From NCBI GenBank assembly GCA_036172245.1, contig JAYWIR010000135.1, positions 1 to 64,000 of the forward strand: a stretch of DNA of 64,000 bases, written 5' to 3'. Each line of letters starts with the position of its first letter. The first letter of the stretch is position 1. The position numbers and the translations under genes were made by a program. The notes under the pieces are model-generated. The model was not told the origin of the DNA and ran no database searches. It saw only the letters and a list, made by a program, of their open reading frames with translations. Positions 8,750-46,396 of this stretch are shown here, one piece after another. The stretch comes from Raillietiella orientalis (lineage: Eukaryota).

Positions 8750-9483
8750 TCTATCCCCAGAGATAAGCTGAAGTGGCCCCCAGTGATCAATAAATCCAGG
8801 ATACTGCCCTCCAAGTGGCAAGAGTCGGTGTTGCTCCTCTTGCATTGAGGTCTACCCTGCAACGCACGCAGCTTCCACTGGACGAGAAGAGCTGTGGATC
8901 CTGCGTGTGCCAGGAGAAAGGAGCGGGAGTCGCTCTTCCACCTTATTGTGGATTGTGCTACCCTCCGATCCCTCTGGGAACGGTTCAAGACGACCCTCGG
9001 GATCCCGACGGGTAGTGCAATTGAAGACGTTCTCCGGCATCTCTTCGTGCGGGACGTCATGCAGCCCGCCGCAACCCTCGCAGCTCTCTTCTGCATCCGG
9101 TATATCCTGGCGGCCTAGAGCGACATTCGCGACGAAGGAGTAGATGCCAACGAGAGGGAAGGCATTCCGTATGCAGTGAGCTTTATGCGAAATGCAGCGA
9201 GATGGCCCCATTTGGGACAAACGCAGAAGGACCTAGAGAGCATCCTGCGAAGGATGGGCCCTCCTCCTAGTAGATACTGATTCCTTCCCCTCCCTCCAAA
9301 CTCCTTTTTCTTGCTTTATTTTATTTTTGTTTTCTCTTAAACTCCCCTCCACACCCGAGGAGCGTCGCGCTGGGCTGCGTCCCGGCGTCCCGGCAGGTCC
9401 GGTGTTGGGCGGCCGTTAGTGGTTCCTCGAACCAAGTTTTTGTAGAGTTTTCAATAAACGCCCTGGGCGTACCCGGGTGGCTA
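8750..9483 (+). mobile_element. 3' fragment of LINE subfamily D (D1)
   Basis: LKWPP..KWQES, CARRKERE..H..C; 3' UTR matches 32024-32240; terminus AATAAACGCCCTGGGCGTACCCGGGTG-GCTA. Confidence 0.88.
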
Positions 9484-9580
9484 CCCCGAATCCCCGTGGC
9501 AGGCGGTGCAAGGAGAACTCCTCGAAAAACTCGCGTACCGAGACCTTGAAAAGGTCTTATTCCTGGAGATTGCTGAGGGT
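9484..9580 (-). pseudogene. ORF2 linker fragment of a subfamily C host; continues at 22290-22995
   Basis: Reads TLSNLQE*DLFKVSVREFFEEFSLHRLPRGFG on the minus strand. Confidence 0.8.
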
Positions 9581-9662
9581 CGAGCGGACGTGTCTTTTCG
9601 CTGCTCCTGAGTTTCATTTCCGTTGGTGGTTGTGCGTGGTAAGGGTGGAGGATTAGGCAGCA

Positions 9663-11301
9663 ATGCCTGATACCACCACCAGTGAGCAGGATCCGGGGGC
9701 GATGAACTAATTGCCTTCGGAGGAGATGGAGGTGGAGGCTCCCGCATCAATGGGGGCTCCCGATAGCACGGATGTGCCCCCGGCTCTACCCAGGGTTTAA
9801 AACGCCGTGGCTGCGGCACCTACGCCAGCGGCTATGCCGAAGATGCGCGCTTACGTGGAGGAGGGGCATAACCCACCCCTTCTATATAAGGTAGGAGGTT
9901 TATATTCTGCCGAGAACGCGCGCGCCTTCTCGCAGGCGATGCGCGTACTCGGCGTACAAAAAGAGGAGCTTCTGGCTATATCCGTCAGAAGCGGGGGTCA
10001 ATTTGTGGAAGTTATCTGCAAAGAGGCAACTCTTGCAGAAAGACTTCTTCGAACTCTCGTAATTGTGGGCAGCCGGAAGCTTCTCCCAATTACTGAAGAC
10101 CGGTCGGTGATCATTCACCTGACCGGTATCACGTTGCGGATGACGAAAAAGGCCGTCCGGAACCAATTAGAAAAATTCTCAACGGTCGTCACGCTATGGG
10201 AAAACCTACTCCGTTTGTTGATAAAGACGGGGTGCTTGGCGGCTTGGGTGAAGCGCGAGTGACGGTTCGCGAAGGGTGTGAGTTTCCCCACAAACTCAAC
10301 GTCATCTGTGAATCCGTTGACGTGTGGTACGTGGCAAAACCCAAGTTCTGCGACTGCTGCAGCAGCTTTGGTTACCTTAAAATGAGGTGTCCGAGCGTGT
10401 GATGCCAGCAATGTAAACAAGCGGGGCACACCCGTTCTGTGTGCCCTCAAAACACAGTCCGCGTCAGGTCGGCAAATAACGCGAGAAAGCGCGCGTTTAA
10501 AAACAGAAAGAAGCAGGCAGCTCTTGCTGCTACTAAGGAGGTCACCTTCGCCAGCAAGGCGAATGCCAGCCCTCAGACTCCTACGAAAAACGCCCAAAAT
10601 ATCGAGAGCGAGGGTCAAGAGCCAGAGTGACAGAAGGTCGACTCCAAGAAAAAATCTCTTAAGATGGGAAAAAGCGTGGCAAAACAGAGCGAAACCGAGC
10701 CGCGCCGCGAAAAAATCAAAAGCTCCTGCGTCGTCGTAAAGCGGATTCCCGCCATCTACAAATGCGTCGCTGTAGAACTCGCTGCTGCACCTGCTCAACC
10801 CTCCGTTGAGAAAGTCAACAAGGAGGGGAGCGAGGCGGCGGCATCTGTCATCGAGTCCACGCTCGATGACGTCGCCTTTGAGCGCGCCGCGAGGAGGCTG
10901 CTGCCTCGTTGCAGCCGGCCACCCCCAAGGCTGGCAAGAAGGTTGTCAGGCGCCCGGCCTCCCCTCAAGAGTATCCCACTTCCGACCCCGAGGTGGAGGC
11001 CGGAAGCACAGCTTTCATCTCCAGCGCACTACGCAAACAGCCTGTACGAAAGTCCACAAAGCCCAAAAAGATCGTCTTTCTCGACGAAAGGGAAGAGAAG
11101 GCTTCCGCCAGCGAGGGTGCGATGAGTGTGGGAAACTCCCGGTACCCGCCGCCCGAGAGAATCCCACGCTCCGCCAAGGAGGGGATGGAGAAGGTAGAGA
11201 CCGAACAGGTGCCCCAGGTGTCGGAAGAGAACTCCGTCCTCATGGACATCCCCAACACCTGCCCCGCGGCAGACTCTTCAACGCCACTTTCCCAGCAATA
11301 A
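9663..11301 (+). pseudogene. ORF1 (gag-like, two CCHC knuckles) of B1, frameshifted
   Basis: YNPPLLYKVG-type N-terminus; CDCCSSFGYLKMRC and CQQCKQAGHTRSVC knuckles near 10350-10445; ends in a TAATG overlap. Confidence 0.85.
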
Positions 11302-11504
11302 TGCCGGGAATCGCCTCCCGTCGTCGTCTGCCGATCGCCTGCTGGAACGTCAACGGTCTAACCGACGACCGCAAGAGACGTGACGTGGCCGCCACTTTGG
11401 CATCCTTAGACCTGGTGCTGCTGCGGGAGATCCACGTGATCTCCGCAGACGAAGCAACGGAGATCGAGCGTATCTCGGGTGGACGGCTGCTGTGGCGTTG
11501 CGGC

Positions 11505-13413
11505 ACCCTTAAGCTCGTGTCTCAGCACGCCTGCCGTGTCGGCCTACGCCGACGACCTTCTGATCCTGCTCCCAGGGTCCACCCCGGCGTCGGCGCAAGA
11601 AGATTTCTTTGAGTTGCTGCGCCGCGGGACGGGCCTCGAGGTGAACAGAGAGAAATCTTCCATCGTTCCAACATCACCACAACTTTTCAACAATACGGCG
11701 TGGGCCGGACGGCCAGAATGGATCCGCATGATGATCCCCACGGGCAGGTGCTTCAAGTACCCTGGCGTTCCGTTGGGGGACTTCTGCGTTGCAGAAGCCT
11801 GGTCCGACCGTCTCCAAAAGGTGGAGTTGGCGATCGGCCCGTTCGGAACGGCAAGTTTTACTTGCAGGAGCGGGCCGCGGTGTGGAACGCGTTCGCGGCC
11901 CCCTTCCTTCGCCCCTTACTTCTTGTTTGCCCCGCCCCTTCCATCATACAGAGACGGACGAAAGCCCTCTTGAGGACTGCCCTTTGGGGCACAGCGTGGT
12001 GGCGAGTCCGATTGAAAGACTTGTGCGCTCCACGCAGAAATGGTGGCTTGGGCCTCCTTATGTTGGAGCGCATTTAACTACAAACAACACTTCGGAAGTT
12101 AGCCCTTGCGGCTATCTTATGGATGACGCCATGGTGCGATCCGGCACGGCTCCTCCCCAGAAGAGCGACCGGCTGCGAAGGATTGTCCTCGATCCTCGTG
12201 GCCTACCAGCGCAGCCTTTCCAACTGTGGCCCCCATTTGCGCCAGATGGTCGCCCTGATGAGAGAGAATACCTGGATCTCCTGCGTCCCCGCGAACTGCA
12301 CTGCCTGGCTTCAGGATTCAGCTTCCGCGTGGGCTAAAATCAACGGCACGAGCGAAGAGGAATATAACTGCCTACGACGAGGACCGTACGCTCGACAGCC
12401 GCTGCAGGAGATTATCAACACGCCCCGGAAGTTTCTGTGGGCTTCCTTCAGCCCCCTTGCCCTTGTTCTGTCCTCCCTGAAAAACACTAGGAGCAGCAAC
12501 GAGCTGGCATCGTGGGAAATGTCGTGCCACATCCGAGGCAGGAAAAAACCTTTAAAGGCGTGCACGACTCGAGAGCTCACGGACGCTGCCACCCCGAGCG
12601 TCCCGCCTCACGGACTTGCGCGCTGGAAAGAGCTGCTCGCAATACCTCCGGAGGAGGTGAAGTGGCCCCCAGCGTGTTGGGATTGCGGCACACTTCCGTT
12701 CAAGTGGCAGGAGACGGTGTTGCTATTTCTGCAGTGGGGACTGTTAAGCAGAGCACGCCTGTCTTACTGGACACTGGGAAATGTGGATGCCCGCTGTGTC
12801 GAGTGCGGAGAAAGAGAAACCTTCCCGCATCTCACCCTCGAGTGTGTCGCCCTGGATGGACTCTGGAGTAGAATAGCCCCAATCCTCCATCTTCCAGTAG
12901 GCGACCCTAAAGAAATTTGCCGTCGCCTCTTTCTGCGTGACGGCCTGCGCCCCGCTGCGTCTCTAGCAGTCCTCAGCTGCGTGCGCGGCGTTGTGCAAAG
13001 GTGCTACGCCAGAAGAAGAGGCCCAAGATGCAGGGACGCCATCCACTGGACAACGATCTCCTTAGAGATGGCGACAAGGTGGCTTCTAGATTTCACAATA
13101 AAAACTGAACATGACTGCATCCTCAACAGGATGCGGAGGACCGACCCAGGCGCCCAGTGATCCCTTCCCTGCCCCCCCCTCTCCCCATACAACTGTTTTC
13201 CTCCTCGTTATCTTTCTTTTCGTTTATTTTTGTTCTAGTTTTTCCTCCCCATGCGCCTTGGGAATGGACCTAACCGGTCTATGCACCGGCAACAGACACG
13301 TCAACCAAGGTGGGAAAACCAAGTGTTTCCCACAATTAACGTTTGAAAGACTTTATTATCTAATTTTTGTAAAAAATTAGAGTAATAAATGCCCCGGCAT
13401 ATCCGGGTGGCAA
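11505..13413 (+). mobile_element. 5'-truncated LINE copy G1 nested in the B1 endonuclease
   Basis: YADD, CVECGERETFPH..C; terminus AATAAATGCCCCGGCATATCCGGGTG-GCAA at 13384-13413; 3' UTR matches 56993-57250. Confidence 0.9.
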
Positions 13414-14044
13414 ACTTCAACCTGCGCCTGCTTCCTAGTGCGCCGGCCACACTGAACGACCGCGTCAACGAGTTGTGCGCGCAAATGCAGACGTGCAACT
13501 CTCTGGCCGGAGATACAGACATGGAACGCAGCATCGATCTCGTTTACCTTGACCAGCACCTATGCTATTGCGTGGGCAGGCGCGGCAAGTTACCGTCCGA
13601 GCTGTCTGACCATGGCCGAATCGTGTTCGAAGTGCATTCGCGCGACAACGGCCCCCCCTCGTCAGAGTGGCGTCTCCTAGGGTACTGGCTGAAGCGTGCG
13701 GACGCGTCAGAACATCTCAGGCGCGTTCACACGGAACTTCGGGTTGCGGACGCTTCAGGACTGGGACCGCTTCAAGCGGTCGGTTCAGGAGTTCTGCGAA
13801 CGGTTTTCTCTACATCGCCTACCTCCAGGATTTCTGGAGGGGCCAAGAAACGAAAGGTGCTATCATCATGCTTGACGTTACGCGAAAACCCCCGACATGC
13901 GCATGTTAGCAGCTTCTTGAGCTGGAGCCGGGAGTCAAGCCTGGCAATCCGGGTCGGAAAGCTTGCTGGACGACCAGGGCCGGGAGCACGCAACTCCTGC
14001 TCAGAAGCGCGGGATTATCCGCAAATTTTACTCCTCCCTGTACG

Positions 14045-17000
14045 TTGCCACACGGTCACGTCGGGACGTTTATTGTAAACTCTCTTTACAAATTGTGGTA
14101 CTTGGCCCCACTACGGCCAACTCAACAGGAAATGCCGGGCCACCGGTACGCAGACCGGCGCGACTCTCCTCGGCAGCGGAAAAGAGTGGGGAAAAACAAA
14201 AAGAAAAATAAAAGAGAAAAGCAAAAAGAAGTTGGAGGGCGGGGAAGGGATCACCGTCCACTGGGAGGAGGGACCATCCTTTCCAGGATGCCCTCGAGGT
14301 ACGTCCGAATGATTCCCAGGTGGGGCCATCTGGTTGCAAGCCCTAGGTAGCGTACTTCCAGTTCGACGGCACCCCTCTCGTAAACTTGGTCTTCTGTAAT
14401 CGCTTTAGCTTCTCACGAACCCTCGGATGCAGCAGAGAGCTACCAGAGCGGCGGCTGGTCGCAGGGCATCCTGCACGAAAAGAAGCCGAAAAACGTCTCT
14501 GGGCTGGCTGCACTCCTGCAGCTGTAGGGAGGTACCAAGACGCTTCCACAGGGGTCGGAGGGCAGCGCAATCAACCAAGAGGTGGGGGAGGGTTTCCCGC
14601 TCCCCACACCTGATGCAGGCAGGATCTAATCGACACCTGGTCCAGTGGTGGCGGCGTGCGTTGCAGGGTAGACCCCAAGGCAACAGCAGAAGCGCCGACT
14701 CCTGCCACTTCAGGGGGAGGATCCTCGATCCAATAAAATCCGGGGGTCACATCAGGTCATCCATCGGGATACCGAGCAGCTCGCCCCATCTCTTCAAACC
14801 ACGCGGGAGGACACTTCGGGTAGTGGCATCGACCAGTTGCGCCGTGGTCCAGCCGCTTAACTTCTTCTCTCTGCCTGCGATTCGGCAGTAGACTTGTCAC
14901 CTAGGCGTGCGGCTTCTGAAGAGCGCCCTCCTCAGGAAGGGCCTCGCCGTAGCTAGGTGCGTGGTCTCGGCCCACCTGCACAGGGCGGGACATTGCAAGA
15001 AGGTCCGCAGGCTGCCGCGGGCACGGTTGTAGAATCGCAGGCAGTTGTAGTTTTCTTCTCCTTGGGCATTTAACCTCGCACACGTTCCAACAGATTCCTC
15101 CAGCCATGCAGAGGAGTTAGCGTCGCTGCATGCAATCCAGACGTTCTCCTTCATCAATGTTGCCATGCGTTTGTGCAGTACGCCGCATCTTCTTATCTTC
15201 TGGCCTGGGCGCAGAAGAAAAGACGCGAGTCAATCGCAGCGGGACACACGGCTGTCTAGGAGGCGGGCCGGAATGCACCAAGGGGTGCTCCATAACTTCG
15301 CTGCGATTGCCAGAGTACGCCATCGCAGCTGACTATCCATTCGCTCCAGCGTCAAGAGGCCGAGACCGTCATCCCTACGCAGAGCACACAAGTCCATCAA
15401 CGGGATTCGGGGTCTCCCTCTTCCCCAAATGGCGATCCTTAGGAGGTCCTTTGTCCGTTTCTTCAACTGCGGCGGGACGAGGCAAACAAAAAGCAGGAGG
15501 CGGAGTATAAGAGCCGCGAACGCTTTCCATACCGCATTCCGTTCCCGAAGGAGTAGCCTGTCTTCCAAGAACGGGCCGATCGCCAACTATACTTTCCGGA
15601 GACGACCCGACCACGCTTCCTAAGGGGAATAGTCCCCCAACGGCACACCAAGGTACTTCAAGCATCTCGCCGTAAGGATCCTCAAACAAATCCAATCAGG
15701 CAGTCCCACCCTCGTCGCACCAACCGCTATCACCGATTACTTCGCCTTATTTACCCGTAGTCCAGTCCCGTGGCTTAGCAGATCGAAGAAATCCTCGACT
15801 GCGGCTACCGGGGCGGACATGGGCAAAAGAAGCAGAAGATCATCGGCTTAAGCCGCTACGGCGGGCGTACCGGGGCAGGAGCTCGGCAAGGGGGCCAAAT
15901 TAACCCTGTATGCTCTCAGCACCAACTCAAAGTAGGTGCTGAAGAGCAGAAGACGCAGGCTATCGCCCTGCGTGATGCCCCGTCGCACCGGCACGCCGCA
16001 CACTTGTTGATTATTGAAAGAGACGTTGATTATAGCGTTGCGCCAGCAGGAGCGCAGGTAGGTTAGTAGGGAGGGTGGTGAGCTCATGCGACCCAGGGGC
16101 TCCAGCAAGAGCTCCTGTTCCACGCAGTCGAACAATTTATGCAGATCGACCGCGAACACTTGGGCGCCATTCTCCGGCCCGGTGTTTCTTCCCTGCCCGG
16201 CCGGCACCCCCAAAGCGGGGTAGCCCCTCACACGCTCACGATCTTGTTTACTACTCTGCCAGCAAAACCATGTGATCGCGAAGAACAGGTTGGCATCCAT
16301 ACTACGGCCGGGAACAGCGTAATTCTGTTCCGGGCTAATTACGCATTCTGCCATTTGTCCTAGACGCGACGCCCACAGTCCGGCGATCAGCTTGGCGTCC
16401 GTATTCACAATGGTGATCGGACGCCAGTTGCTGAGTTCTCTGAGGTCTCCTCTCTTGGGAAGGAGCCTCACTCTGGCTGACCGAAACGAGGCGGGAACAT
16501 CGCCTTCGTATGGGATAAGCCTTGTCAACTGAAGCACCAGGGGTGCAAACTCTGCTGCGAAGCATTGAAAAAACTCCGCGGTCAGGCCGTCCTTTCCTGG
16601 TGCTTTCCGCCACTTGAGCCTTTTGATACCGGCGAGAATATCGCCGGTGGTAGAAGGCTCGTCGAGGCTTTGCTTCTCCTCTTCCCCTATTGACGATGCA
16701 CCATCCCGAAGCAAGCGCCGAGAGGCATTTTGTTCCGGAGGCCTCCTAGCGTAAAGGGAGGAATGATAACATCGCACGAGGTGCCGTATTCTAGCCAAAG
16801 CGGAGTGCTACCGGCCCTGGTCGTCTAGCAAGCTGGCCGACCCGAATTGCCAGGCTTGACGTTCGGCCCCGCCTCGATACTCCGCCAGGCGACGGATGTT
16901 GGGGGTCCTTGCGTAACGGCAGGCATACAAATACGCCCGTTCGTTACGGACCCCATCCTTAAATCCGGGGGGCAAGCGGTGCAAGGGGAACTCCTATCAG

Positions 17001-19946
17001 AACTCGCGGTCCGTGGCCTTAAAAAAGTCGCAATCAGCGAGATTCAGGAGGGTGACGCCTCAGTAATTGGCGAATATGTGCTTTCAGAACTGAGAATAGC
17101 GTCCAGTCCCCAGGCAGCTGTCATGCCCTGGAAGAAGGACTTTTGTCGCGCAAGCACATTTCGATAAATAGCCGGGAATGGTTCCACAGCGTCGACGCAA
17201 CTCTTCTTCGATTGCCGACCCGTGGATACAGATCAGCATCCAGGAAAAAATGGTCGATGCTCTTGGCCATTTCCGGGAGATCCCATAACAAGTTGAGCGT
17301 GCGCATGGCAGCGTGCAACTCCTTGGCCGTCCGCTTTTGTGCGTGGGCATCACCTGAGAGCAGGCGCAGGTTGAAATCGCCTGCAATCAGGTGAGCCCTG
17401 CGCACGTTCGCTTCCACCAGCAAGTCGCGCTTGAGGGTCTCCAGGAACGCCGCACGTTGCTGGTACCTGGCAGGACCTCTCGGAGCGTACACATTTGTTA
17501 CGACGAGGTCGATCGTGTCGGACCACCTGAGAATCAGCTGGCCGACACGACCGGCTTCTTCGAAGCGCACGCCTTTCACGGCTGCGTCGACTGCCGGCTT
17601 TATTAAAAACGCAACGCCGCAGGTGAATCGGGTGAACCATTGCTACATAAGCCGCCCCCCTGCGATCCTTTCGATCTCCTAGGCGTTCTCCGCGGTGATC
17701 ACGTGGATATCCTGCAGTAGCGCCACGTCGAAGTCACGCAGGGTGGCGGCCGTGTCCCGTATGTTGCCGTCGTCGCGCAGCCCATTCACGCTCCAGCAGG
17801 CCACGCGTAATTGACGGCGACAGGCGAGCCCAGGTATTACTCCAGGGACGGTGGCAATGGGACTCCCGCCACCTGGTCGGGCGGGACGGATGAAGGAATG
17901 GGATCACCGCGCACCGATTCACCCTCCTGCATGGGGGCCGATTCCTCAGCGGACTGCAACGGTTGAAGGGGGCGGGATTCACGCACCTGCTCCCCCTCTA
18001 TCATGTGGGCCGATTCGTCGACTGCGCTGGACGGCAGGGGGAAGCGCTTGTCAGCGGTCTGCTCCCCCTCCTCCATGGCTATCTCTTGAGCAGGTTCCAC
18101 CGTTGGAAGGGGGCGGCAATCACTCACCTTCTCCCCCTTCTCCATGGGGGTCGCCAGATGCTTGGTAGCGGAAGGTGGGAAAGTCGTTCCCTCCGTTCCC
18201 ACGCTGTTGGCTTCCACCTCGGTTGCCGGTGCGTCCCCCTCTTTCTTTGTCGGGATGCGCCTCTTCGGATTCTTGGAATTCCGTCCAGTCTTCTTCGGAG
18301 GCGCCTCCGCGGAGGAGGACGAACTTCCGGCATTCGCGTCGTGGTCACCATTCGGAGGCGCCCTGGTCGCGGCCGGCATTCGCAAGGTTTTTCGTGCGCC
18401 GTTCACACGGTCCGCGAGTTCCGCCGTGAGCTCTTTCGCTGCCTGTTGGAAGCCGGCGTCCTCGATTGCAGCGTGCGCGTCGCTCGGCTCCCCCTCTGTT
18501 TGCACAAAGGGTTCGCCTTCCTTGATCGCGGCTTCAGCGTCAACCAGGCGGGAGATATCTCCCACGGTGGACGTCTGGGGTATCAACACTCGCTCCAAAG
18601 CGAGCGAACATTCGCGGAGCAAAGCGCGGGGTTGCATTCTATTTAGAAAAGCTGTCGCGGGTTCCGCTGTCGATTCTTCGGTTTTCTGGCTTTTTTTACT
18701 TTTCGGCTTCGCAGTTCGCTAGTGGTTGTTGTCACCAGCGTCGTCGGGAGGATTCTCCACCGTTGTTTGCTGGGAGCATTTGGACTCTGGCTTTTTGCTG
18801 GGCCTTTCCTTTGCTTTTTGGAGCTTGCTTGATTTCTCCAAACGTTTCCCCTTACCTTTTTTCAATTCAAAGGGCGCTGGAGGTTCTTGCTTTAGCACAC
18901 TTTTTAGAAGTGGCTCTTCTCTCCGCAGTTGAAACATTGGATGTGAGGGCACCGTGTTCTCCGGTGCCCTGTTGCATCACAGTGCCCACAGTACTTGGGC
19001 TTGCCCACGTACCAGACGTCGACGACCCCGTTGCCGACGTCGAGTTTGTGGGGCAGCCCACCGTTTTCGTGGACGGTCAAACGCGCTGCAGCCATGCCAC
19101 TGAACAGTCTTCCGTATGTTCGAAAGAAGTTGGGCTTGGTCCAGAGCGCGTGCACCGTACCATGTTTTCGCAACTGTTCCTGCACGCCAGCTTCTGTCAT
19201 GCGCAGAGTTACACCGGTAAGGTGGGCAACAATGGAGCGGTCCTTTCTCACAGGGAAGACCTTCAGGCCTTTCAGAGTGATGGGAGTGTTCAGCATGCGT
19301 TAAGCAAAGACTTGAATTTTTGCAAGTCAGCTCCACCCGCTGGCCCTTACTCATCACGTATAGACCTTCCAGGTCTTTCTCTTTCGCATCCAACTGCTGT
19401 AACTCTCTTTCAAAGTTACGAGCGGTGTTTCTTAGAAACAGATTTTCTACTTTGTAAATCAGGGACGGCTTGTATCCTTGTTCAAGGTAGGCGCGCTGTT
19501 ATGCTAAGGCTGCAGGAGATGGCGCTGCATCCACTGAGCTCCAGGTCTTCGTCGTTGCCGAGGAAGGAACCAAAGACGCGGTTGCTCCCTTTTTCAAGCG
19601 GGAGGTTGCGCCCTTTTGCAAGGCGGCGGATGTCCCCTTTTTCAAGGGGGCGGTTGCTGCCTTTTCCATGAGGGCGGTTGCCCTTTTGTTCAAGGTCGCG
19701 GTAGCCGTCGTTTTCGGAGAGGCGGTTGCCCTCTTTTTCATGGAGGCAGCTGCCCTCTCATCCGTGCGGGCGGTTGCCTCCACCTCAATGGGTTGGGGAG
19801 AGGAACAATCCTCTCCCCCGCCGACTTCCATCGCGGTGTCCTTAGGCATTTCTGCCATTGGACACCGCAGATGCTCCACACACAAACACTAACGAAAAGG
19901 AACGCTCTACAACAGGCGTAGAGGAGAGCGGAAAAAACACGTCCGC
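14045..19946 (-). mobile_element. Full-length degenerate LINE copy C1 (~5.9 kb) nested antisense in B1
   Basis: 5' GCGGACGTG at 19946; ORF1 19858-17837 with CGHCDATGHRRTRC and CFNCGEKSH; ORF2 17837 to ~14250; terminus AATAAACGTCCCGACGTGACCGTGTG-GCAA. Confidence 0.9.
19580..19775 (-). repeat. Degenerate 24 bp coding tandem repeat (ATAxLKKG) in the ORF1 N-terminus of subfamily C
   Basis: ATATLNKR ATALMEKA ATAPLKKG TSAALQKG ATSRLKKG; homologous array near 29230-29410. Confidence 0.8.
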
Positions 19947-22289: not shown

Positions 22290-22995
22290 GTGAGATTGCA
22301 GAGGGTGACGGCTCACAGGAATTCGCGAAGGTGTTACTTCGCACCTGAGAGTCGCGTCCAGTCCCCAGACAGCCGCCACGCTCTTGAAGGAGGACCCTTT
22401 TCGCGCGGGCATACCTCGATAATTAACCGGGAATGGTCCGACAGCATCGACGCAACTCTCCTTCGATTGGCGACCCGTGGACACAGATGAGCATCCAGGA
22501 AAAAATGGTCGATGCTGTTGGCCATTCCCGGGAGTTCTCCTAACAAGTTGCGCGTGCGCATGGCAGCGCACAACTCGTTGGCCGTCTGCATCTGAGCGTG
22601 GACATCACCTGAGAGCAGGCGCTGGTTGAAATCGCCAGCAATCAGGTGAGCCCTGCTTACGTTAGCTTCCACCAGCCAGTCGCGCTTTAGGGTTTGCAGG
22701 AACGCCTTACGTTCCTGGTACCTGGCAGGACCGTTCGGGGCATACACGTTTGCAACGACGAGGGCGATCCTGTCGCACTACCTGAGAATCAGCTGGCCGA
22801 CACGTCCGGCTTCGTGGAAGCGCACGCCCTTCACGGCTGAGTCGACCGCCGGCTCCATACAAAACGCGATGCCGCAGGTGTATGCGGTGTCGCATTGTCA
22901 CACAAGCCTTCCTCCTTTGCGATCCTTTTGATCTCCTGAGCGTTCTCCGCAATCATCATGTGCATCTCTTGCAGGAGCGCCAGATGGAAGTCACG
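22290..22995 (-). pseudogene. Endonuclease fragment of a subfamily C host
   Basis: YAP, GDFN, IDH, SDH in ORF 22334-22747; homologous to 17050-17740. Confidence 0.88.
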
Positions 22996-22997
22996 TA

Positions 22998-25282: not shown

Positions 25283-25410
25283 TCGAAAGCTTTACGCAAA
25301 TCGACTGCGACCGCAAGGGCTCCCGGCGCCGCATCTTCTTCGAGGCTTCCCTACCCCCTGTCAATGGAGAGTTCATGACTTTCCCGACGTAGCTGCGCCT
25401 TGCGTTTTTG
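25283..25410 (-). pseudogene. Short RT fragment ending at LAVAVDLRKAF
   Basis: Minus strand CTTGCGGTCGCAGTCGATTTGCGTAAAGCTTTCGA at 25317-25283. Confidence 0.7.
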
Positions 25411-35000: not shown

Positions 35001-37702
35001 AAATAGGTCCCAGTCCTGGAGATTCCGGAGCGTCGAGCGGACGTGTGTTTTCGTTGCTCCTGAGTTTCATTTCCGTTTGTGCTTGTGCGTGGTGTCGGTG
35101 CAGGATTAGGCAGCAATGCCTGATACCACAACCGGTGAGGATCCGGGGGCGATGACCTCATTGCCCCCGGAGGAGATGGAGGTGGGGGCTCCCGCATCAG
35201 TAGAGGCTTCCGTCAGCATGGATGCGCCCCCGGCCCTACCCAGGGCTTGGAACACCGTGACTGTGGCACCTACGCCAGCAACTATGGCGGAAATGCGCGC
35301 TTACCTGGAGGAGGGGTATAACCCACCCCTTCTATATAAGGTAGGCGGTTCATATTCTCCCGAGAACGCGCGCGCCTTTTCGCAGGCGATGCGCGTTCTC
35401 GGTGTACAAAAAGAGGAGCTTCTGGCTAAATCCGTCAGAAGCGGGGGTCAATTTGTGGAAGTTATCGCAAGGAGGCAACTCTTGCGCAGAGACTTCTGCG
35501 TACCCCCGTAATTATGGGCAGCCGACGGCTTCTCCCAATTACTGAAGACCGGTCGGTGATCATTCACCTGACCGGTATCACGTTCCGGATGACGGAGGAG
35601 GCCGTCCGGTACGAATTGGAAAAATAAGCAACTGTCCACGCGCTGTGGGGAAAGCCTACTCCTTTTGTCGATTACGTCGGGGTGCTTGGCGGCTTGGGTG
35701 CAGCGCGAGTGACGGTTCCCGAGAGATGTGAGTTTCCCCACAAACTCACCGTCAACGGTGAATCCGTTGACGTGTGGTACGTGGGGAAACCAAAGTTTTG
35801 CGGCTGCTGAAGAAGCTTTGGTCACCATAAAATAAGGTGTCCGAGCGTGCAGTGCCAGCAATGTGAACAAGCGGGGCACACCCGTCTGGTGTGCCTCCAA
35901 CACGCAGTCCGCGTCGTGTCCGCGAAAAACGCGAGAAAGCGCGCGGCTAAGAAGAGGAAAAAGCTGGCAACTCGTGCTGCTGCTAAGAAGTCACTTCCGC
36001 CACCAAGGCGTAGGCCAGCCCCGAGACCCCTGCGAAAAACGCCGAAAACGTCGAGGGCGAGGGTCAAGAGCCAGGGTGGCAGAAGGTCGATCCCAAGGAA
36101 AACTCCCATAAGAAGGGAAAGAACGTGGCGAAACGGAGCGAAACAGCTCTGCGCCGCGAAAAAATTAAAAGCTGCTGCGTCGTTGTAGAGCGGATTTCCG
36201 CCATCGACGAATGCGGCTCTAAAGAACTCGCTGCTGCCCCTGCTCAACCCTCCGTTGACAAAGTCAACAAGGAGGGGAGCGAGGCGGCGGCGTCCGTCAT
36301 CCATCCCACGCTAGATGACGTCGCCTTCGAGCGCGCCGCGGAGGAGCTGGCTGCCTCGTTGCAGCCGGTGGCCCCCAAGGATGGCAAGAAGGCCGTCAGT
36401 CGTCCGGCTTCCCCTCAGGAGTCGGCCACTTCCGATCCCGAGGTGAAGGCCGGAAACACAGCATCCATCTCCGCGGCACCCCGCAAAAAGGCAGGACGAA
36501 AGTCCACAATGTCCCGGAAGATCGTCTTTCCCTACGAGGGGAAGAGATGGCTTCCATTAGCGAGGGTGCCATGAGGGTGAGAAACTCTCGGGACCCGTCG
36601 CCGGAGAGAATTCCACGGTCGGACACGGAGGGGATGGTGAGGATGTAGTCCGAACAGGTACCACAGGCGCCTAAAGAGGACTCCGTCCGCGTACCGATGG
36701 ACCTTACCTACACCTGACCCGCGGCAGGAGTCGCGACGCCACTTTCCCAGCCATAATGCCGGGAATCGCCTCTCGCCGTCGTCTTCTGATCGCCTGTTGG
36801 AACGTGAACGGGCTAAGCGACGACGGCAAGAGGCGTGACGCGGCCGCCACCCTGGCATCCTTCGACCTGGTGCTGCTGCAGGAGATTCACGTGATCTCCG
36901 CAGATCAAGCCCTGGAGATCGAACGGATCTCGGGTGGGCGGCTGTTGTGGCGTTGCGGCCCCGCGAAATCAAGCGGTGTCGCCTTCCTGCTTCGGCCAGC
37001 CATCGACACCGCAATAAAGGACGTTTGGTTCGATGACGCAGGTCGCGTCGGTCAGCTGACTCTCAGCTGGTCCGACTCTATCGACCTGGTCGTCACCAAC
37101 CTATACGCTCCTAGCAAAAACGCCGCGTTGAGGGCGAAGGCAAGAAGGGAGTTCTACCTTGTCCGGAGACGCGATTGGCTGACCGATGCTGGAGTTCGCA
37201 AAGCGCACCTGATGGCAGGTGATTTCAACCTGCGCCTGCTTTCTGGTGCGCCGGATACACTGAACGACCGCGGCAACAAGTTGTGCGCAGAAATGAACAC
37301 GCGCAACTTGTTTGCCGGGGACACGGCCATGGAAAGCAGCATCGATCACGTGTACCTCGAACAGCACCTATGCTCTCGGGTGGGCAGGCGCAGCTAGGTA
37401 CCATCCGAGCTGTCGGACCATGGTCGGATGATGTTTAAAGTGCGTCCGCGCGACAAGGGCCCCCCTCGTCAGCGTGGCGTCTGCAAGGGGACTGGCTGAA
37501 GTTTCCCGACGCGGCGGAGCACCTCCGCGCGTTTATTCGGAGCTTCAGGATGCAGACACTTCAGGACTGGGACCGCTTCAAGCGGTCGGTCCAGGAGTTC
37601 TGCGACCAGTTCCCCCTGCATCGCCTACCTCAGGGATTTGAGGAAGGGCTGCGTAACGAAAGGTGCTATCTTTAGGCGCGACGTTACGCGAGAACCCACG
37701 AA

Positions 37703-39382
37703 ATGCGCAAGTTAGCAGAGTATCGAGCGGGAGCCGAGAGGCAAGCGTGGCAATCCGGGTCGGCCAGCTTGCTGGACGACCAGGGCCGAGAGCACTCGGT
37801 TATAGCTCAGAAACGCGGAATAGTTAGAAAATTTTACTCCTCCCTGTACGCCAGGGCGCCTCCGGAGCAGGCAGTCTCGCGACTCCTGCTTCCGGAAGGT
37901 GCTCTAGCAATCGGGGAGGAGGAGAAAAGGAACCTCGACGAGCCTTTCACGATGGGCGAGATCATCTCAGCCATCGGAAAGCTCAAGAGGCGAAAGGCTC
38001 CAGGGAAGGACGGCCTGCCTGCGCAGTTTTATCAAACTTTCGCGGCAGAGCTTACTCGCTTAATACATCAGCTCACTTTGCTGATCCTCGAAACAGGTGA
38101 CGTTCCCACCGCGTTTCGTTCAGCAAAGGTGCGGCTCCTCCCGAAGGGAGGAGACCTTAGGAGCATGAACAGCTGGCGTCCCATCACAATAGTGAATGCG
38201 GACGCCAAGTTGCTAGTTGAGCTGTGGGCAGAGCGCCTGGGACGGGTCGCCAACATCTTCATCAGCTCGGAACAGACGTATGCTGTTACCGAGCGAAGTC
38301 TGGATGCGAACCTGTTTCACGCTTCCACATGGTTAGAGCACCAACAAGGAAGGAGCATAATAAGCAACAGGAATTCCGGTGCGTCCGTCGGTGGGGGACG
38401 GGATGGTCGAGAGGGGAGAGGAGCCGTCGCGGTCGCAGACGATTTGCATAAAGCATTCGATTGCCTCGACCAGAATCTCCTTTTGGAGCTTCTGCAACGC
38501 TTGGGCTTCCCAGCCTCTTTGCTGGCCTACCTGCGCTCCAGCTGGCGCGACGCGCTTATTAATGTTTTCTTTAGTGGATCCACCGTGTACGGCGTACCTG
38601 TGCGACGCGGCATCCGGCAGGGAGACAGCCTCAGCCCCTTGCTTTTCAGCGCCTATTTCGAATTGGTGCTGAGAGCATACAGGGAGACTCTGGCACACCT
38701 GCCGTGCGATTGTCCCGGTACGCCTGCGGTTTCGGCGTACGCGGACGATCTTCTGCTGCTGCTGCCTATGTCCACCCCAGCCTCGGCGGTCGAGGACTTC
38801 TTCGACCTACTGAGTCGTGGAACAGGACTCACGGTGAACAGGGCGAAGTCGTCCGTAATGCCAGTAGGAGCGGCGTGGGCAGGGCAGCAGGACTGGGTCC
38901 GTTTGGGGATCCCCACGGTGAGGTACTTCAAGTACCTTGGTGTGCCGTTGGGGGACTACTCCCCTGCGAAGGGGTGGTCCCGCTGCCTTCAGAAGGCTCA
39001 GGCGGCGATCGGCCCGTTCCAGGACGGCAGGTTCTACCTGCAGGAACGGGCCGCGGCGTGGAACGCGTTTGCGGCTTCCCTCCTTCGCTCCTTGCTTTTT
39101 GTTTGCCCCCCCTCAGCGGAGTCAAAGAAGAGGACAAAGGACCTCCTGAGGATCGCCCTTTGGGGCAGACGGAGGCCCCGAGTCCGTTTTTCGGACTTGT
39201 GCGCTCCTCGTCGGGATGGTGGTCTGGGCCTCCTGACGTTGGAGCGGCTGGAGCTACAGCTCCAGTTCCGAGTTGTTGCCTTTATGGCAGAAAATTGGTG
39301 CACCCCTTGGTGCCTCCCTGCACGTCTCCTCGTCGAGCGTGCCACCTGCAATCCTGGACTCTCGTTCTACTTTCCACTATGA
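37703..39382 (+). pseudogene. RT region of B2 ORF2 (559 aa open segment)
   Basis: KAPGKDGL, SWRPI, KAFD, QGDSLSPLLF, YADD, KYLGV. Confidence 0.93.
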
Positions 39383-40126
39383 GGGTCCGTCTGCCACTGC
39401 GGACTGCAACTTCGGAGGGCGGCCAAGCTCCTGAAGACCAACTAGGCGCAGATCCTCGTACGCTTCGCGAACGGTCCTGCCTGGTTGCAGGAAACCGTCC
39501 GCACGTGGGCGATGATTCAAGAGCAGAGCCCGCAACACGAGCAAATAGCTCTGTTCGGGCCGCATGTCCACCGCACGCTCCAAGAAATCATCGAGAATCC
39601 CCGAAGGAGAGCGTGGGCATAAAGATCCTCCCTTGCTGCGCTACTGCCTACCCTACGGGAACATCTGGGCAGCGACGTCGCGGCACAATGGTAGGTTACT
39701 GTCAAGATCGCCAGCAGGGCAAAGAAGATCGGGGATTGGAGAACGGGTCAGCTCACCAACGCTGCGTCCCCGAGGACCACCCCAAATGGACTGTTGCGCT
39801 GGGGAGAGCTACTGGATGTTCCAGAGGAACATCTCGAGTGGCCCCCGGTGCTCATGGACTCGCGCACCCTCCCCATGAAGTGGCAACAGTCGGCACTGCT
39901 TTTACACCCGGGTGCGCCGGGGCGTTTTTTTCTTTAATAAAAAAAAATAAACAAGCAAGTGTAGGGCTATCGTCCCTACAGTGTTCAGAACATGTTCTTC
40001 TGAACTCGCCGAGTGGGCAGCACGCAGGCTCCCAAGGTCGACTCGGCAGCAAAGGGGGAAGGGACAAATAGGAAAAAGCAAAAAGAAAACACTATTTACA
40101 AAAGCAGGGAGGGGTTGGAGGAGGGA

Positions 40127-43100
40127 TCACGTTCCGCTGGAGACGTCCTCTACATCCTTTGCAGGATGCCGGCAAGTTCAAACTGCATGTGTCCCAGATG
40201 GGTCCATGTGGCTGCCGTCCTCAGGAAGCGCAGGGCGTAGCACAAGATGTCCCTATCGTTCGGTCCACCAGTGGCGGTGCTCCAAGCCGCTACAATCCCT
40301 CGTAGGCAGCAGAGGGCTGCAAGGGCTGCGGCAGGCGAAAGGGCGTCGCGCACGAAGAGGCGCTTTAAAATGTCTCTGGGAGCGTGCAAGGGTGCACCAA
40401 CGGCTGTTGCAAAGCGCAACCACAGGGGCCGGAGGGCAACACAGTCAACGAGCAGGTGCGGGACAGTTTCTCGTTCGCCGCACCTGACACAGTTTGGGTC
40501 CACAACCCCCCTCGTCCAATGAGAGCGGCGGGCGTTGCTGGGGAGTCCCCAGTGCAACACCAGGAACGCCGACTCCTGCCACTTTAGGGGGAGGGCCCGA
40601 GTATTCCTCAGCACTGGGGGCCACTCGAGTTGATCCCGCGGGATGCACAGCAGCTCGCCCCAGCGCAACAGTCCTCTCGGTGGGGAACTTGGGATCGCGG
40701 CATCAGCAAGCTGACCCGTGGTCCAACCACCTTGTTCTTTCTCAGTGTCCCTGATCGTACACCGGACCTCCAACATGGCCGGCTGGCTACTGCCCAGATG
40801 TTCCTTGAGGTGGGACAGAGCTGTGGCAAGGGAGGACCTCTCAGCCCACGCACTCAAGGCGGGCTGCACGATGATGTCCTGCAGCGAGCGGCTCTTATGA
40901 TAGGAGTGCAGCATTCGCTGCCGCAACTCCGGGCTCGCTTCCTCGATCTGGGCCCACGTGCGAAGGCTTTCCTGCAACCAGGAAGTGCCGTTCGCGGGCC
41001 GGCAGGAGATCCAGGTGTTCTTCCTGGTCAGCTTCGCCACTCGCCGAAGAGCCAGTCCGCAGTGGAACAGGTACCGGCGTTTGCGGCGCGCTAGGAAGGT
41101 AGACAGTCCCACGCAGCCGCCGACTCGCTGAACCAGGCATCGTGCAGGCTCGCACCAGCTGGCGCTCCACAACTTCGCCACTAGGGCGATTATTCGGAAC
41201 TGCAGCTGCAGTTCGAGGCGCTCCAGCGTGAGGAGGCCAAGGCCCCCATCGCGACGAGGGGCGCACAAGTCCTTCCAACGCGCGCGGGGCCTTCCTCTGC
41301 CCCAGATGGCGATTCTGAGGAGGTCCTTTGTACGTGTTCTCACACCACATGGTGGGGGACAAACAAAAAGCCAGGAGCGAAACAGGGGGGCCACGAAAGT
41401 GTTTCACAGTACGGCCCGTTCCGGCAAGAAGAACTTGCCATCCAGGAACGGGCCGATCGCTCTCTCGGCCTTTTGGAGGCAGCAAGACCATTGTTCCGCT
41501 GGGGAGTAGTCCCCCAACGGCACACCGAGGTACTTAAGGTACCGTACCGTGGGGATCTTCAAGCGAGACCAGTCTAGCTGCCCTGCCCACGAGGAACCGA
41601 CTGCAACAACGGACGACTTTGCTCTGTTCACCTCGAGTCCTGTCCCGCGACGCAGCAGCTCGAAAAAGTTTTCGACCGCCGACGCCGGGGTGGACATGGG
41701 GAGCAGCAGCAGAAGATCGTCCGCATACGCCGCCAAGGCCGGTGTACCTGAGCACACGCGCGGCAGGCGACCAAGAGTCTCCCTGAATGCCCTCAGCACC
41801 AACTCGAAGTAGGTGCTGAAGAGCAAGGGGCTCAAGCTATCACCCTGCCGTATCCCGCGGCGCACCGGCACACCGAACACGTTCCTTCCCCTGAAAGAAA
41901 TGTTGGTCAGCGCGTCGCGCCAGCAAGATCGCAGAAAGGCCAATAAGGAGGCCGGGAATCCCAAGCGCTCCAGAAGCTCCAGCAGGAGCTCCTGATCGAC
42001 ACTGTCAAATGCTTTCCGCTAATCGACAGCGACCGCGAGGGCCCCTTCTCTCTCCCGACTATCGCGCGAACCACCAGCGGACGTCCCGCAAATCGGGCTG
42101 CCGACCTTGTTCCCTCCATTCATTCTGGTTCTTTGAAGTTCGAACCAGGTGTTCGCGAAGAGCAGGTTGGCGTCCATGCTTCGCCCGGTAACAGCGTAGG
42201 TCTGCTCCGGGCTGATGAAGCTTTCCGCCACCCGCCATATTCGCTCCGACCATAGCTTCGCAACCAGCTTGGCGTCCGCGTTTAGTACGGTAATCGGACG
42301 CCAATTGCTGAGGTTCCGTAAGTCTCCTCCTTTCGGTAGGAGACGCATACGTGCCGATCGGAAGGAGGCGGGAACGTCTCCTGTCTCCCGGATAAGCAGC
42401 GTTAGCCGCTGCACCAGGGGAGCCAGCTCAGCCGCGAAGCACTGAAAAAACTCCGCGGGCAGGCCGTCTTCCCACGGTGACTTTTGCCTTTTGAGCTTCC
42501 CGATTGCGGTGATGATTTCACCCATCGTGAAAGGCTCGTCCAGGCGTACTCTGTCTTCTTCCCCGATCGCCGGGGCACCGTCCGGAAGCAAAAATTGGGA
42601 AAATTCCCGGTCCGGAGGCACCCTGGTGTACAGGGAAGAATAATAGCCGTGCACTAGGCTACTCACCTCTGCCGGGGCCGAGTGCTCTTGGCCTTCGTCG
42701 TCCAGCAGGCTGGGCGACCCCGATTGCCAGGCCTGCCGCTCGGCCCCGGCTTTAAATTCCGCCAGTCTTCGGACGTCTGGTGTTCGGGAGTAACGACGGG
42801 CCTGCAGGTAAGCCCTATTGTTCCGAACACCTTCTCCAAATCCTTTCGGGAGACGGTCCATGGGGAACTGTTGGCAGAACTCTCGCACCGAGACTTTCAA
42901 ATCGTCCCAGTCGTCGAGCGTCTGCAGGCTGAAACCTCGCAAGAATGCGCGGAGGTGTTCCGCTGCGCCTGGGTTGGTCAGCCAGTCCCTCGGTAGACGC
43001 CACGCCTGCGCGGGGGGCCCCCTGTCGCGCGGGCGAATGACGAGTTCCACACGGGAGTGGTCGGAGACTGCGGACTGTATCTTACCTCGCCTGCCCACGC

Positions 43101-43716
43101 GACAGCGCAGATGATCGTCGAGGAAGACGTGGTCCACGCTCCGTTCCATCCCGGTATTCCCGGCTAACAAGTTGGATGCGTGCACCGAAGCGCACATCTC
43201 GTTAACCGGGGTGGCCTCTGTCCTCGCCGCACCTGATAGCAGGCGAATATTAAAATCGCCGGCTATCAGGTGCGCCGTGCGCGCGCCTGCCTCCGACAGC
43301 CAGTCGCGCTTGAACGCACGGAAAAACGCCGTCCGTGCCACGCGCGCGTGACCGCCGCTCGGCGCGTACACGTTCGTGACGACGAGATTGATGGAGTCGG
43401 ACCACCTGAAGGTGATTTGCCCGACCCGACCTGCCTCATCGAAACGAACTTTGCGCACCGCGCGTTGTAAGGCAGGCTTCAGAAGGAAAGCGACCCCGCG
43501 CGTACGGCGGTGGCCGCATCGCCACATAAGCTGACCACCGGCTATCCGTTCGATCTCCCGCGCATGTTCTGCGGAAATCTCATGGATCTCCTGCAGCAGC
43601 ACGAGGTCGAAGGCTTGCAAGGTGGCAGCTATGTCTCGTCTCCTGCCGTCATCGCAAAGCCCGTTGACGTTCCAGCTGGCGATGCGTATTTGACGGCAGG
43701 TGGCGAGTCCCGGCAT
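40127..43716 (-). pseudogene. ORF2 of copy I: endonuclease, RT, zinc finger (~1200 codons; stop at 42019, frameshift near 41400)
   Basis: ORFs 42019-43716, 41404-41964 and 40150-41394 carry all motifs in order. Confidence 0.93.
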
Positions 43717-45320
43717 TACTGCTGGGAAAGTGATGCTGCGTCTTCCGCCTCACCTAGGGGCGCGACGCCGGCTTTCTCCTGTGCGGTGAGGGGCGGCTCG
43801 ACGACCCCCTCCGTCTCCATCGGCTCCGTCTCGACCGATCGTGGGAGTTCAGGACTCGTGTCCATCTCTCCCACGCTCGCCGCACCCTCGTTTCCGGTGG
43901 ATTCCCCTTCCTCGGAGGAGACGATCCTCCTCGGGTTACGGATTTTCCTTCCGGTATTCCTCGGGGTTGCAGATGCGGATGGTGCGTGTCCGGTCTCCGG
44001 GTCCGAGTCCGAGGTCCCGGTCCCCCTCCTCTCGGCCGGACGTCGAACGGCCTTCTTCCCGACCTTTGCGGGATGCTGCTGACTGGCGGCGAGCTCGGCG
44101 GCGGCTTTTGCAAAGCCCACGTCATCGCGGCTCTCCCCCTTGCCTCAGCCTTCGGACGCTGTTTGCACAGCGACGGAGCTGTCAGCGTTGTTGCACACGG
44201 CAACGTCCTGTTCGCACGGCACTTCGGCGTCTGCAAGGCGCTCCAGTACGATCGTGCATTTTTTCAGTCCCTGCTTTTTCGCGGGTTTCGCGGTTTTTGC
44301 AGGGACTTTATTTTTATTATTTACGTCCTTTTTTTCTTTCTTTTTCTTTGGACTGACCTTTTGCCAGCCAGGCTCTTCTCCTTCCACCTCGGTTGCCTGC
44401 GTTTCAGCAGACGGGGTGGTCGGGATGCCCTTTTTGGCTGGCTCCGGGTCAACCGTATTTTCAGACGGCGGCCTGGTCTTGCCAGGCTTCTTGCTCGCGT
44501 TCGTGCCGCTCACGGCAGCAGCCGGCGCGCGCGAAGTCTTTTTGGGGCACACTTCTTCCGTGTGCCCGATTGCCTCGCAATTGCGGCAGGTGATGTTGGG
44601 GCAGCGTTTCTTCACGTGCCCCGTACCATCACAAAACGCACAGTATTTGGGTTTGCCCAGATACCAGATGTCCACAGAATCTCCGTCGACTACTAGTTTA
44701 TGGGGAACCCCAATGTCCTTATTCACAGTCACACGTGCCGCGGCGAGTCCGCTCAGGAGTCCGTCATAAGTACGGAACCTGTTGGGCTTCAGCCACAGCG
44801 CGTGTACGGTGCCGAATTTGCTGAGTTCAGCCCTAACGGCGCTCGGTGACATCCGCACGGTGATTCCACGGAGGTGGACAACTCAATAGTTGTCCACCTC
44901 CGGGACAGGGAAGATCTGGCGGCCCTCGACCCTGACGGGGGTTCGAAGCAGTCTTTGCGCCAACCCTGCTTCTTTGCAGATCAACTCGACATGCTGTCCC
45001 CCGCTGCGGATGGAGAGACCCAGCAGATCCTCCTTGTTAACGTTCAAACGGTGGAGCTCCTTCTCGAAGGAGCGCGCAACACGGTCGTCAAACACCCGGC
45101 CTACCTTATACAGCAGACTCGGGTTGTAGTTGTAGGCCTTGTAGGCCTGGTCCTCGGCGATGGCCGCTGCAGATGGCGCGGCGACCGCGGCGCTGTAGTC
45201 CCTCGCCGGCGCAGGGGACGAAGCTTTCTGGGCAGGTGCCCCTATCTCCATGGGTATGGGGGACGTTCGCCCGGCCCCCACCCCACATTCACTAGTGGTG
45301 GGATCAGGCATTTCTGCCAT
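43716..45320 (-). pseudogene. ORF1 of copy I with two CCHC zinc knuckles
   Basis: CAFCDGTGHVKKRC and CRNCEAIGHTEEVC; frameshift near 44880 and stop at 44145. Confidence 0.9.
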
Positions 45321-46396
45321 CCACCGACCACTGATGCACCGCACTACACCAATAAAGTCGAGTGAGTCAGGAGCGCGCAGAGAACACGTCTGACCGTCGG
45401 CACTGCTGGTGTTGCATTGGGGCCTCCCCTGCAACGCCCGCCGACACCACTGGACGCGGGGGGTGTCAACCCCAATTGTGTCAGGTGCGGGGAGAGCGAA
45501 TACCTCCCCCAGCTGCTAGTGGAATGTGTTGCCCTCCGTCCCTTGTGGGAACCCTTTGCCGCAGCCCTGGGCATCCCCGGAGGCAACCCCAGAGACGCTT
45601 TCGCCCCCTCTTCGTCCGTGACGCCCTGCCTCCAGCGGCCTCGCTTTCAGCCCTGTGCTGCCTACGCGGGATCGTCGTGGCATGGAGCAAAGCGACGGAA
45701 GGATCCAGCGACAGGGATGATAACGTGTATGCCGCCCGTTTCCTCAGGATGGCGACGCGATGGTCCCATCTAGACCACACACGCAGAAAGAGCTTGCCGG
45801 CATCCTCCAGAGGATGACAAACCCTCCCAGCAGACTGTGATCCCTTCCCGCTCCCTCAATGAATTTTGTTTATTTTTTGTTTTCTATTTGTTTCGTTCCC
45901 CCTCCCCACTGCTCCCGAGGTCGACCGCGCCGGTCTGCGCACCGGTAGCCCGGTAAGCTATATCTTTCCAGGGCGTGGCTGGTCTACTGGTCCAGTCACA
46001 GATTGTGTAGGTTTATTCGTGAGAATGAACGTCCCAACGCACCCGGGTTTCAATGGAGATTCCGGAGCGTGACGCCTCTCAGGTATGCGCGAATGTGTTC
46101 CTTCGCACCTGAGAGTCGCGTCCAGTCCCCCGGCAGACGCCAGTCCCTGGATGGCGGTCCCATGTCGCGAGGCCGCATCTCGAAAATTAACCGGGAATGG
46201 TCCGACAACGTTGACGCAACCCTCCCCCGTTTGCCGACCCGTGAACGCAGGTCAGCGTCGAAGAAGACGTGGTCGATGCTGAGCACCATTCCCCTCTCAC
46301 CCGCGAACAAGTTGCGCGCACGCAAGGGGGCGCACAACTCGTTCATCACGTTCACTTGTGTTTCCGGCTCACCTGTTAGCAGGCGGGGATTGAAAT

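Follow-up and report, generated by a model that had tools for sequence, protein, structure and literature searches.

Several groups of long interspersed nuclear elements (LINEs) are described as preferring other repeated sequences as targets. Zepp and ZeppL, L1-type LINEs of green algae (Chlorella/Coccomyxa, Chlamydomonas), are described as inserting into copies of their own family and as forming exclusive nested clusters, the Zepp arrays being tandem and made up mostly of 3′ ends owing to 5′ truncation. The account of Cnl1 in Cryptococcus describes a non-LTR element (LTR, long terminal repeat) that prefers to insert within itself, giving nested arrays in tandem orientation that adjoin telomere repeats (PMC9942834), and the Tx1 and R1 clades are presented as target-specific groups encoding an apurinic/apyrimidinic endonuclease (APE), with repetitive sequences such as rRNA genes and microsatellites among the targets named (PMC4640811). 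Here we describe a stretch of 64,000 nucleotides from Raillietiella orientalis (GenBank assembly GCA_036172245.1, contig JAYWIR010000135.1, positions 1 to 64,000; hereafter the window), all of which is a nest of decayed LINEs. One LINE subfamily in it, which we call B, is very probably a site-specific retrotransposon that inserted independently, at full length and in antisense orientation, into the coding sequence of sibling LINEs by target-primed reverse transcription.

The two copies of B, B1 (9581-22289, 12.7 kb) and B2 (35034-46053, 11.0 kb), are both full-length copies of a common unit of ∼5.5 kb, their excess length being due to later LINEs nested inside them at different places. The flank positions given in the initial annotation hold, with one correction, that neither copy is a simple unit. 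That annotation also proposed that B had entered the same site in two different host subfamilies with 17 bp duplications, and the underlying observations are confirmed. B2 is flanked by a perfect 17 bp repeat (TGGAGATTCCGGAGCGT at 35017-35033 and 46054-46070, 17/17), and the flanks of B1, TGGAGATTGCTGAGGGT (9564-9580) and GTGAGATTGCAGAGGGT (22290-22306), match one another at 14 of 17 positions. Both targets are antisense to TL.NL codons in the same register (TLSNL/TLCNL in the host of B1 and TLRNL in that of B2), and the translations of the hosts are of different types, RLLSGDVHAQ and RLLTGEPETQ respectively. B1 and B2 are thus found at the same nucleotide of a host LINE (hereafter site 1), both antisense to it; this point is ∼60 codons past the last APE motif of the host and therefore lies within the linker between the APE and the reverse transcriptase (RT) domains. 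The two copies have a 5′ terminus in common, CGAGCGGACGTGT..., which follows the left repeat without a gap, and in both ...GTTTCAA immediately precedes the right one.

Three other copies in the window are uninterrupted at site 1: X1 and X2, which like the B1 host are X-type LINEs, and c13. In all three the two B flanks run directly into one another, with the repeated stretch as their overlap, and because of this we regard the 17 bp repeats as bona fide target-site duplications (TSDs). The degenerate 15-mer GAGATTSCNGAGSGT, with up to two mismatches permitted, has six matches where 2.07 are expected; all six are at the homologous site, and six matches were reached in none of 100 shuffles. In a comparison of 14 copies the motif GAGATT..GAG.GT GACGCC is carried only by the clade that comprises the X-type copies, c13 and c8 (the B2 host), and the homologous stretch of B itself reads quite unlike the target.

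Recurrence of B at one nucleotide could also be accounted for by one ancestral insertion followed by segmental duplication of the host-plus-B composite. BLAST alignments do cross both junctions (9498-11508 with 34951-36962, and 21633-22579 with 45397-46343), and segmental duplication does occur in the window, as the pair 25413-28723/49961-53280 (89% identical) illustrates. We nonetheless consider this explanation highly improbable. The host flanks differ at 116 of 442 positions (26%; left 28/99, or 71.7% identity, and right 88/343, or 74.3% identity), whereas B1 and B2 differ at 756 of 4885 (15.5%), with identities of 85.4, 82.1, 85.0 and 82.9% in four segments. An RT tree of 11 copies, from which three shorter hits were excluded, pairs B1 with B2 as sisters (support 99); in a maximum-likelihood tree of a 425 bp host region in 14 copies the B1 host groups with X1 (98/98) and then with X2 (98.9/100), and the B2 host with c13 (96.3/97). 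Each host's nearest relatives are therefore empty at the site, and LINEs are not subject to precise excision. The TSDs themselves follow the host subfamily: at positions 9 and 15 each repeat flanking B1 has G,G and each repeat flanking B2 has C,C, the B1-side letters matching X1 and X2 at position 15 and X2 at position 9, and the B2-side letters matching c13, so that a single ancestral insertion would require parallel changes on both sides.

The unequal branch lengths of the two copies also count against a shared duplication. B1 has 170 private substitutions to 113 in B2 with one outgroup (p=0.0007) and 93 to 53 with the other; the B1 duplication has decayed to 14/17 and that of B2 is intact at 17/17. 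Both of these differences in decay point to different ages. It is possible, judging from identities of ∼80% in both parts, that the B1 host together with e8772, the LINE that adjoins it on the left, is a DNA duplicate of X2 together with c8; B1 is in the counterpart of X2 and B2 is in c8, and thus they would occupy different members of the composite even if the composite was duplicated. The independence of B1 and B2 proposed in the initial annotation is accordingly borne out by flank divergence, the host tree, the TSD letters, the decay of the copies and the arrangement of the composites, and we conclude that there were two independent insertions; the outcome that the annotation named as refuting this, host flanks no more diverged than B1 and B2, did not occur.

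A related possibility is that B was moved from host to host by ectopic gene conversion or homologous recombination acting through the flanking LINE homology, and there are indications that such exchanges take place here. The similarity of the B2 host to c13 is mosaic, 79% to the left of B2 and 90% to the right, from which it follows that gene conversion or recombination occurs in the cluster, and CCTGGAGATT, present to the left of both B1 and B2, corresponds to CAGCGAGATT in X1 and X2. An exchange of this kind should, however, bring with it donor sequence next to B, extending outward, yet TSD positions 9 and 15, which are located between B and the shared CCTGG, are of the host type on both sides. 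The hosts are moreover only ∼74% identical, and sequences at this level of identity are poor substrates for homologous recombination; the difference in decay between the copies also fits insertions of different age. We give transfer by conversion no better a chance than duplication. Slightly less improbable, though still unlikely, is that the APE-RT linker is a regional or structural hot spot, owing to DNA structure, chromatin or a transcription-exposed strand, and that the B endonuclease does not read the sequence. In its favor, four 3′ junctions of different subfamilies, all antisense, fall within ∼300 bp of the linker, at B coordinates ∼2520 (B, twice), 2610 (site 2, below), ∼2780 (c1 in c2) and 2817 (X1 in B1), and the second-strand nick of B would fall in a near-palindrome, GCGT-G-ACGC. 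A hot spot does not explain why the recurrence is exact to the nucleotide, with the same 17 bp stagger, in hosts that differ at 26% of positions, or why each subfamily keeps to a position of its own. B is also present in two of the five copies with GAGATT..GAG.GT against none of the nine others, a difference that is not significant (Fisher p ∼0.11). The junctions of c1 in c2 and X1 in B1 were considered as equivalent sites and rejected, being ∼40 nt apart. The near-palindrome can be read at 35028-35033 with 46071-46078 and at 54251-54264.

The elements involved are, from their domains, APE-type, L1-like non-LTR retrotransposons. LINE copies on both strands, 10-35% diverged, span the window from end to end (G+C content 58%, with no CpG depletion), although some stretches, such as 8044-8750, are without match to any of three reference elements. 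Ten of the 12 longest open reading frames (ORFs) have Pfam matches to Exo_endo_phos, RVT_1 or, near the cut-off, zf-RVT. PF03372 (Exo_endo_phos) is matched at 55.9 and 47.7 bits (cut-off 24.5) by the ORFs at 42019-43716 and 3412-4518, both on the reverse strand, and APE motifs are readable in the X1 and c13 translations; PF00078 (RVT_1) is above its cut-off in four of the 12 ORFs (83, 66.7, 59.8 and 39.3 bits) and below it in two more; and PF13966 (zf-RVT), at 26.7 and 24.1 bits, is just under its cut-off of 27.5. All three domains are present in distant full-length relatives of 1100-1260 aa, and the look-alikes in an atlas search are RVT_1 + zf-RVT clusters. The closest database protein, from one metagenome contig, is 62% identical and the rest are at most 42%, the 42% match covering just 10% of the query; the few named distant relatives are from Chara, Rhizopus and some flowering plants.

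Both ends of the elements are conserved across subfamilies. The common 3′ terminus is AATAAACG followed by a CCCGG..CCGGG hairpin and 4-7 nt (examples are at 46020-46053, 32024-32060 and 39901-39940), and 10 aligned 3′ ends read AATAAACG-CCCGG..CCGGGTG with 4-7 nt more, or, in B, GTTTCAA. None of these 10 ends has an A-run, nor do they show the poly(A) or simple-repeat tail by which an L1-like LINE is recognized; the window LINEs differ in this from typical L1, which has a 3′ poly(A). TSDs are present and terminal repeats absent, as for an APE-type LINE, the TSDs being 17 bp at B1 and B2 and 10-12 bp at E40, a LINE nested in B2. The 5′ termini share the form CG.GCGGACGTGT.TT.TC....CTCCT; a metagenome scan for this pattern gave two loci, neither BLAST-similar to the window, which we regard as chance matches. 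The window has no Rfam matches and no telomere repeats, and a tandem-repeat scan of it gave nothing relevant. A 24-nt tandem repeat of ∼7 copies is present in the 5′ region of the X-type LINEs (19578-19755 and 29201-29411), and an 11-nt repeat of 9.4 copies is at 55497-55599.

The anatomy of the two B copies and their hosts, together with the empty sites and the recurrent junctions at a second site, is given in Table 1. A TSD is lacking at X1, and B is short of 348 bp at this position. The right piece of the B2 host shares 90% identity with the empty copy found at 54244-54582. Two contigs from a public run join position 39888 to 45396 with 12 ambiguous letters, and thus represent a B copy lacking E40; E40 therefore inserted later, and further B copies exist outside the window. 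This run contained 0.14 of the sampled words, and its contigs were mostly of 300-400 letters. Among the contig alignments listed, none bridged 35033 and 46054 and none had a loose end at a B terminus, a result that weighs in neither direction.

Table 1. Positions in the window of the B copies, their hosts and nested LINEs, empty sites and site-2 junctions.
Feature	Position	Strand or orientation	Description
B1 host, left piece	9482..9580	-	X-type LINE, from site 2 to site 1; left TSD 9564-9580
B1 part a	9581..11507	+	5′ terminus CGAGCGGACGTGT, ORF1 region, to start of APE; corresponds to B2 35034-36962, 85.4%
Later LINE in B1	11508..13415	+	5′-truncated, sense; 3′ end ∼13412-13415; replaces ∼260 bp of B
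B1 part b	13416..14044	+	End of APE and linker; 82.1% to B2 37224-37850
X1	14045..19949	-	Full-length 5905-bp X-type LINE, antisense in B1; uninterrupted at both site 1 and site 2
Empty site 1 in X1	17037..17053	+	GCGAGATTCAGGAGGGT
B1 part c	19950..22289	+	RT to 3′ terminus ...GTTTCAA
B1 host, right piece	22290..22995	-	X-type, 83% to X1; right TSD 22290-22306; RLLSGDVHAQ ... AVTLCNL
Empty site 1 in X2	31927..31943	-	GCGAGATTGCGGAGGGT
B2 host (c8), left piece	32024..35033	-	3′ end at 32024, to site 1; left TSD 35017-35033
B2 part a	35034..39900	+	5′ terminus, ORF1-like CCHC region, APE, RT; degenerate, frameshifts
E40	39901..45397	-	Full-length 5497-bp LINE of another subfamily, antisense in B2; 10-12 bp TSD 39889-39900/45396-45407
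B2 part b	45398..46053	+	3′ region, ending ...GTTTCAA
B2 host (c8), right piece	46054..46396	-	Right TSD 46054-46070; RLLTGEPETQ ... GVTLRNL
Empty site 1 in c13	54240..54256	+	GTATGATTCTGGAGCGT; c13 is the closest relative of the B2 host
Site 2, e8772 3′ end in B1 host	9481/9482	Antisense to host	
Site 2, e26858 3′ end in c6	26674/26675	Antisense to host	
Site 2, c8 3′ end in X2	32023/32024	Antisense to host	
Site 2, e51229 3′ end in c12	51228/51229	Antisense to host	

B is not the only subfamily with a recurrent junction. At site 2, ∼95 bp from site 1, four LINE 3′ ends are at the same host position to within ∼1 nt, all antisense. They fall into two pairs in which insert and host identities are alike, 78.7 and 80% for c8/e8772 and 90.4 and 92% for e26858/e51229, and for this reason each pair may represent one event copied by segmental duplication. 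Between the pairs the hosts are 61% and the inserts 73.7% identical, indicating that there were at least two independent site-2 events; the site is empty in X1, c14, c2 and others. One public-run contig joins 37631 to 32024, that is, a host ending CAGGTTTCGGCA to a c8-like 3′ end, a type of junction also present at 51228/51229; this single alignment row is a hint of one more insertion at site 2, beyond the window. At a third site it is the 5′ ends that coincide: X1 (in B1, 19949/19950) and X2 (in c27976, 29032/29033) begin at the identical host position, ...AACTTGG|CGTGCGG, in hosts that are 75.3% identical, X1 and X2 themselves being 84.5% identical and B2 being empty at this site. The 3′ junction of X2 is away from the expected place. 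No nick-site motif shared across subfamilies is evident by eye among the 3′ junctions.

DNA-level events have also shaped the cluster. The 3.3-kb direct repeat at 25413-28723/49961-53280, introduced above, is probably a segmental duplication within the cluster, since it spans a LINE-in-LINE junction at 89% identity; a third copy of its host part, in inverted orientation at 61304-62562, has no insertion at site 2. A direct duplication of 338 bp (3393-3730/4525-4862), which includes a LINE 3′ end and its flank, is to judge by its 99.7% identity by far the youngest event in the window, while 12738-13415 and 56991-57669 (inverted, 93% identical) are the youngest retrotransposed pair seen. We attempted to account for the whole nest by simple insertions, and this fails to close at two points: at 46396/46397, where the remainder of X2 should adjoin the 5′ side of c8, the 3′ end of c11 is present on the same strand, and at ∼56850 a B-like 5′ region takes the place of c12 next to the 5′ end of e51229. 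Deletions or rearrangements must have come later, or 5′ ends were joined in a non-canonical way.

On the best reading, B is an APE-type, L1-like non-LTR retrotransposon of ∼5.5 kb with an ORF1-like CCHC region, APE, RT and a probable C-terminal zinc-binding domain, a defined 5′ terminus and a 3′ hairpin without poly(A). Two separate retrotransposition events placed full-length B antisense at one nucleotide, in the TL.NL codons, of older LINEs; the host of B1 is X-type and that of B2 is c8/c13-type, and these are distinct sibling subfamilies. Integration would proceed by target-primed reverse transcription, as is understood for APE-type LINEs, with a first, bottom-strand nick opposite CC|TGGAGATT, where the TSD begins on its left, and a second, top-strand nick 17 nt beyond it, at G(C/G)GT|GACGCC. 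The choice of site would probably be made by the ORF2 protein of B, through its APE and/or another DNA-binding part, which would read approximately (T/G)(G/C)GAGATT..GAG.GT GACGCC. Recognition by this protein seems the most likely mode because B has no other stretch that is like the target or complementary to it: an RNA guide was considered and rejected, as the 71-nt target, reconstructed and compared with both B copies by BLAST, matched only the homologous stretch of B (13 nt) and short chance words. Since B's own stretch differs, B would not be its own target and would be immune to itself. Sibling subfamilies appear to act likewise at neighboring sites, so that the cluster grows as LINE inserts into LINE.

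The initial annotation regarded the repeated use of the site as its strongest evidence for sequence specificity, and this interpretation gains support from the two B events taken with two recurrent junctions of sibling subfamilies: B1 and B2 (n=2) are independent copies that share both the nucleotide of insertion and the orientation in a multicopy target, and sibling cases are seen at sites 2 and 3. Several considerations nevertheless weigh against it. The specificity of B rests on two B copies, and because the window is all LINE any insertion there lands in a LINE, such that only exact recurrence argues for specificity. X1, X2 and c13 have 12-13 of the 17 target letters and yet are unoccupied; either recognition is narrower than the shared motif, with the nick-proximal TGGAG being important, or the targets are unsaturated. 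The nested insertions are not all at recurrent sites or antisense: the 3′ ends at 13415 and 56994, which are 93% alike, are sense-oriented at unrelated places, and that subfamily therefore has no fixed-site habit; c11 is head-to-tail with c8. The cluster is mosaic, as seen in the comparison of the B2 host with c13. All copies examined have stops and frameshifts and are degenerate, and the nick positions and a protein-based recognition are inferred.

It is possible, though on balance doubtful, that what we see in B is general, and that a guild of sibling LINE subfamilies builds the cluster, each having integration machinery that is nucleotide-exact for the APE-RT linker, on the antisense strand, of its sibling subfamilies, and a homologous stretch of its own that has drifted beyond recognition by that machinery. 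If so, this would be a form of hyperparasitism of LINE upon LINE, in which an insertion both finds a safe haven and inactivates a competitor, and a self-contained, possibly centromere-like LINE island would be its by-product; nested LINE islands are proposed centromeres in some green algae. Target-specific LINEs are rare, and are studied as models of safe-haven integration and as leads for site-directed integration. The target of B is the coding region of related LINEs, in antisense and at a fixed nucleotide, with siblings using fixed sites of their own nearby. Should a genome-wide survey agree, it would provide a concrete mechanism, at the level of sequence, for the formation of exclusive nested LINE islands, and also a group of near-identical types of endonuclease whose specificities differ and can be read.

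How does this locus compare with the systems described previously? Like the Zepp and ZeppL clusters it is an exclusive assembly of nested LINE copies, end to end and on both strands. Unlike those of Zepp, the key insertions are full-length, antisense, nucleotide-exact, flanked by TSDs and without poly(A); B1, B2, X1 and E40 are full length and the 5′ end of X2 is complete, in place of the truncated tandem array, and nine of the 14 3′ junctions listed are antisense to the neighboring copy. The likeness of B to Zepp and ZeppL is drawn from nesting behavior as described. The window also differs from Cnl1 arrays in that its insertions are antisense and that telomere repeats are absent, and while Cnl1 targets itself, B targets sibling subfamilies. 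In the literature searched, which did not include the original Zepp reports, we found no description of the ORF2 linker of sibling LINEs as a target. In behavior B resembles the Tx1 and R1 LINEs, with which it shares an APE-type endonuclease and a single fixed insertion site in a multicopy sequence. Tx1L resides in a DNA transposon; the target of B differs from the repetitive sequences named above for such groups in being the ORF2 linker of related LINEs, on its antisense strand.

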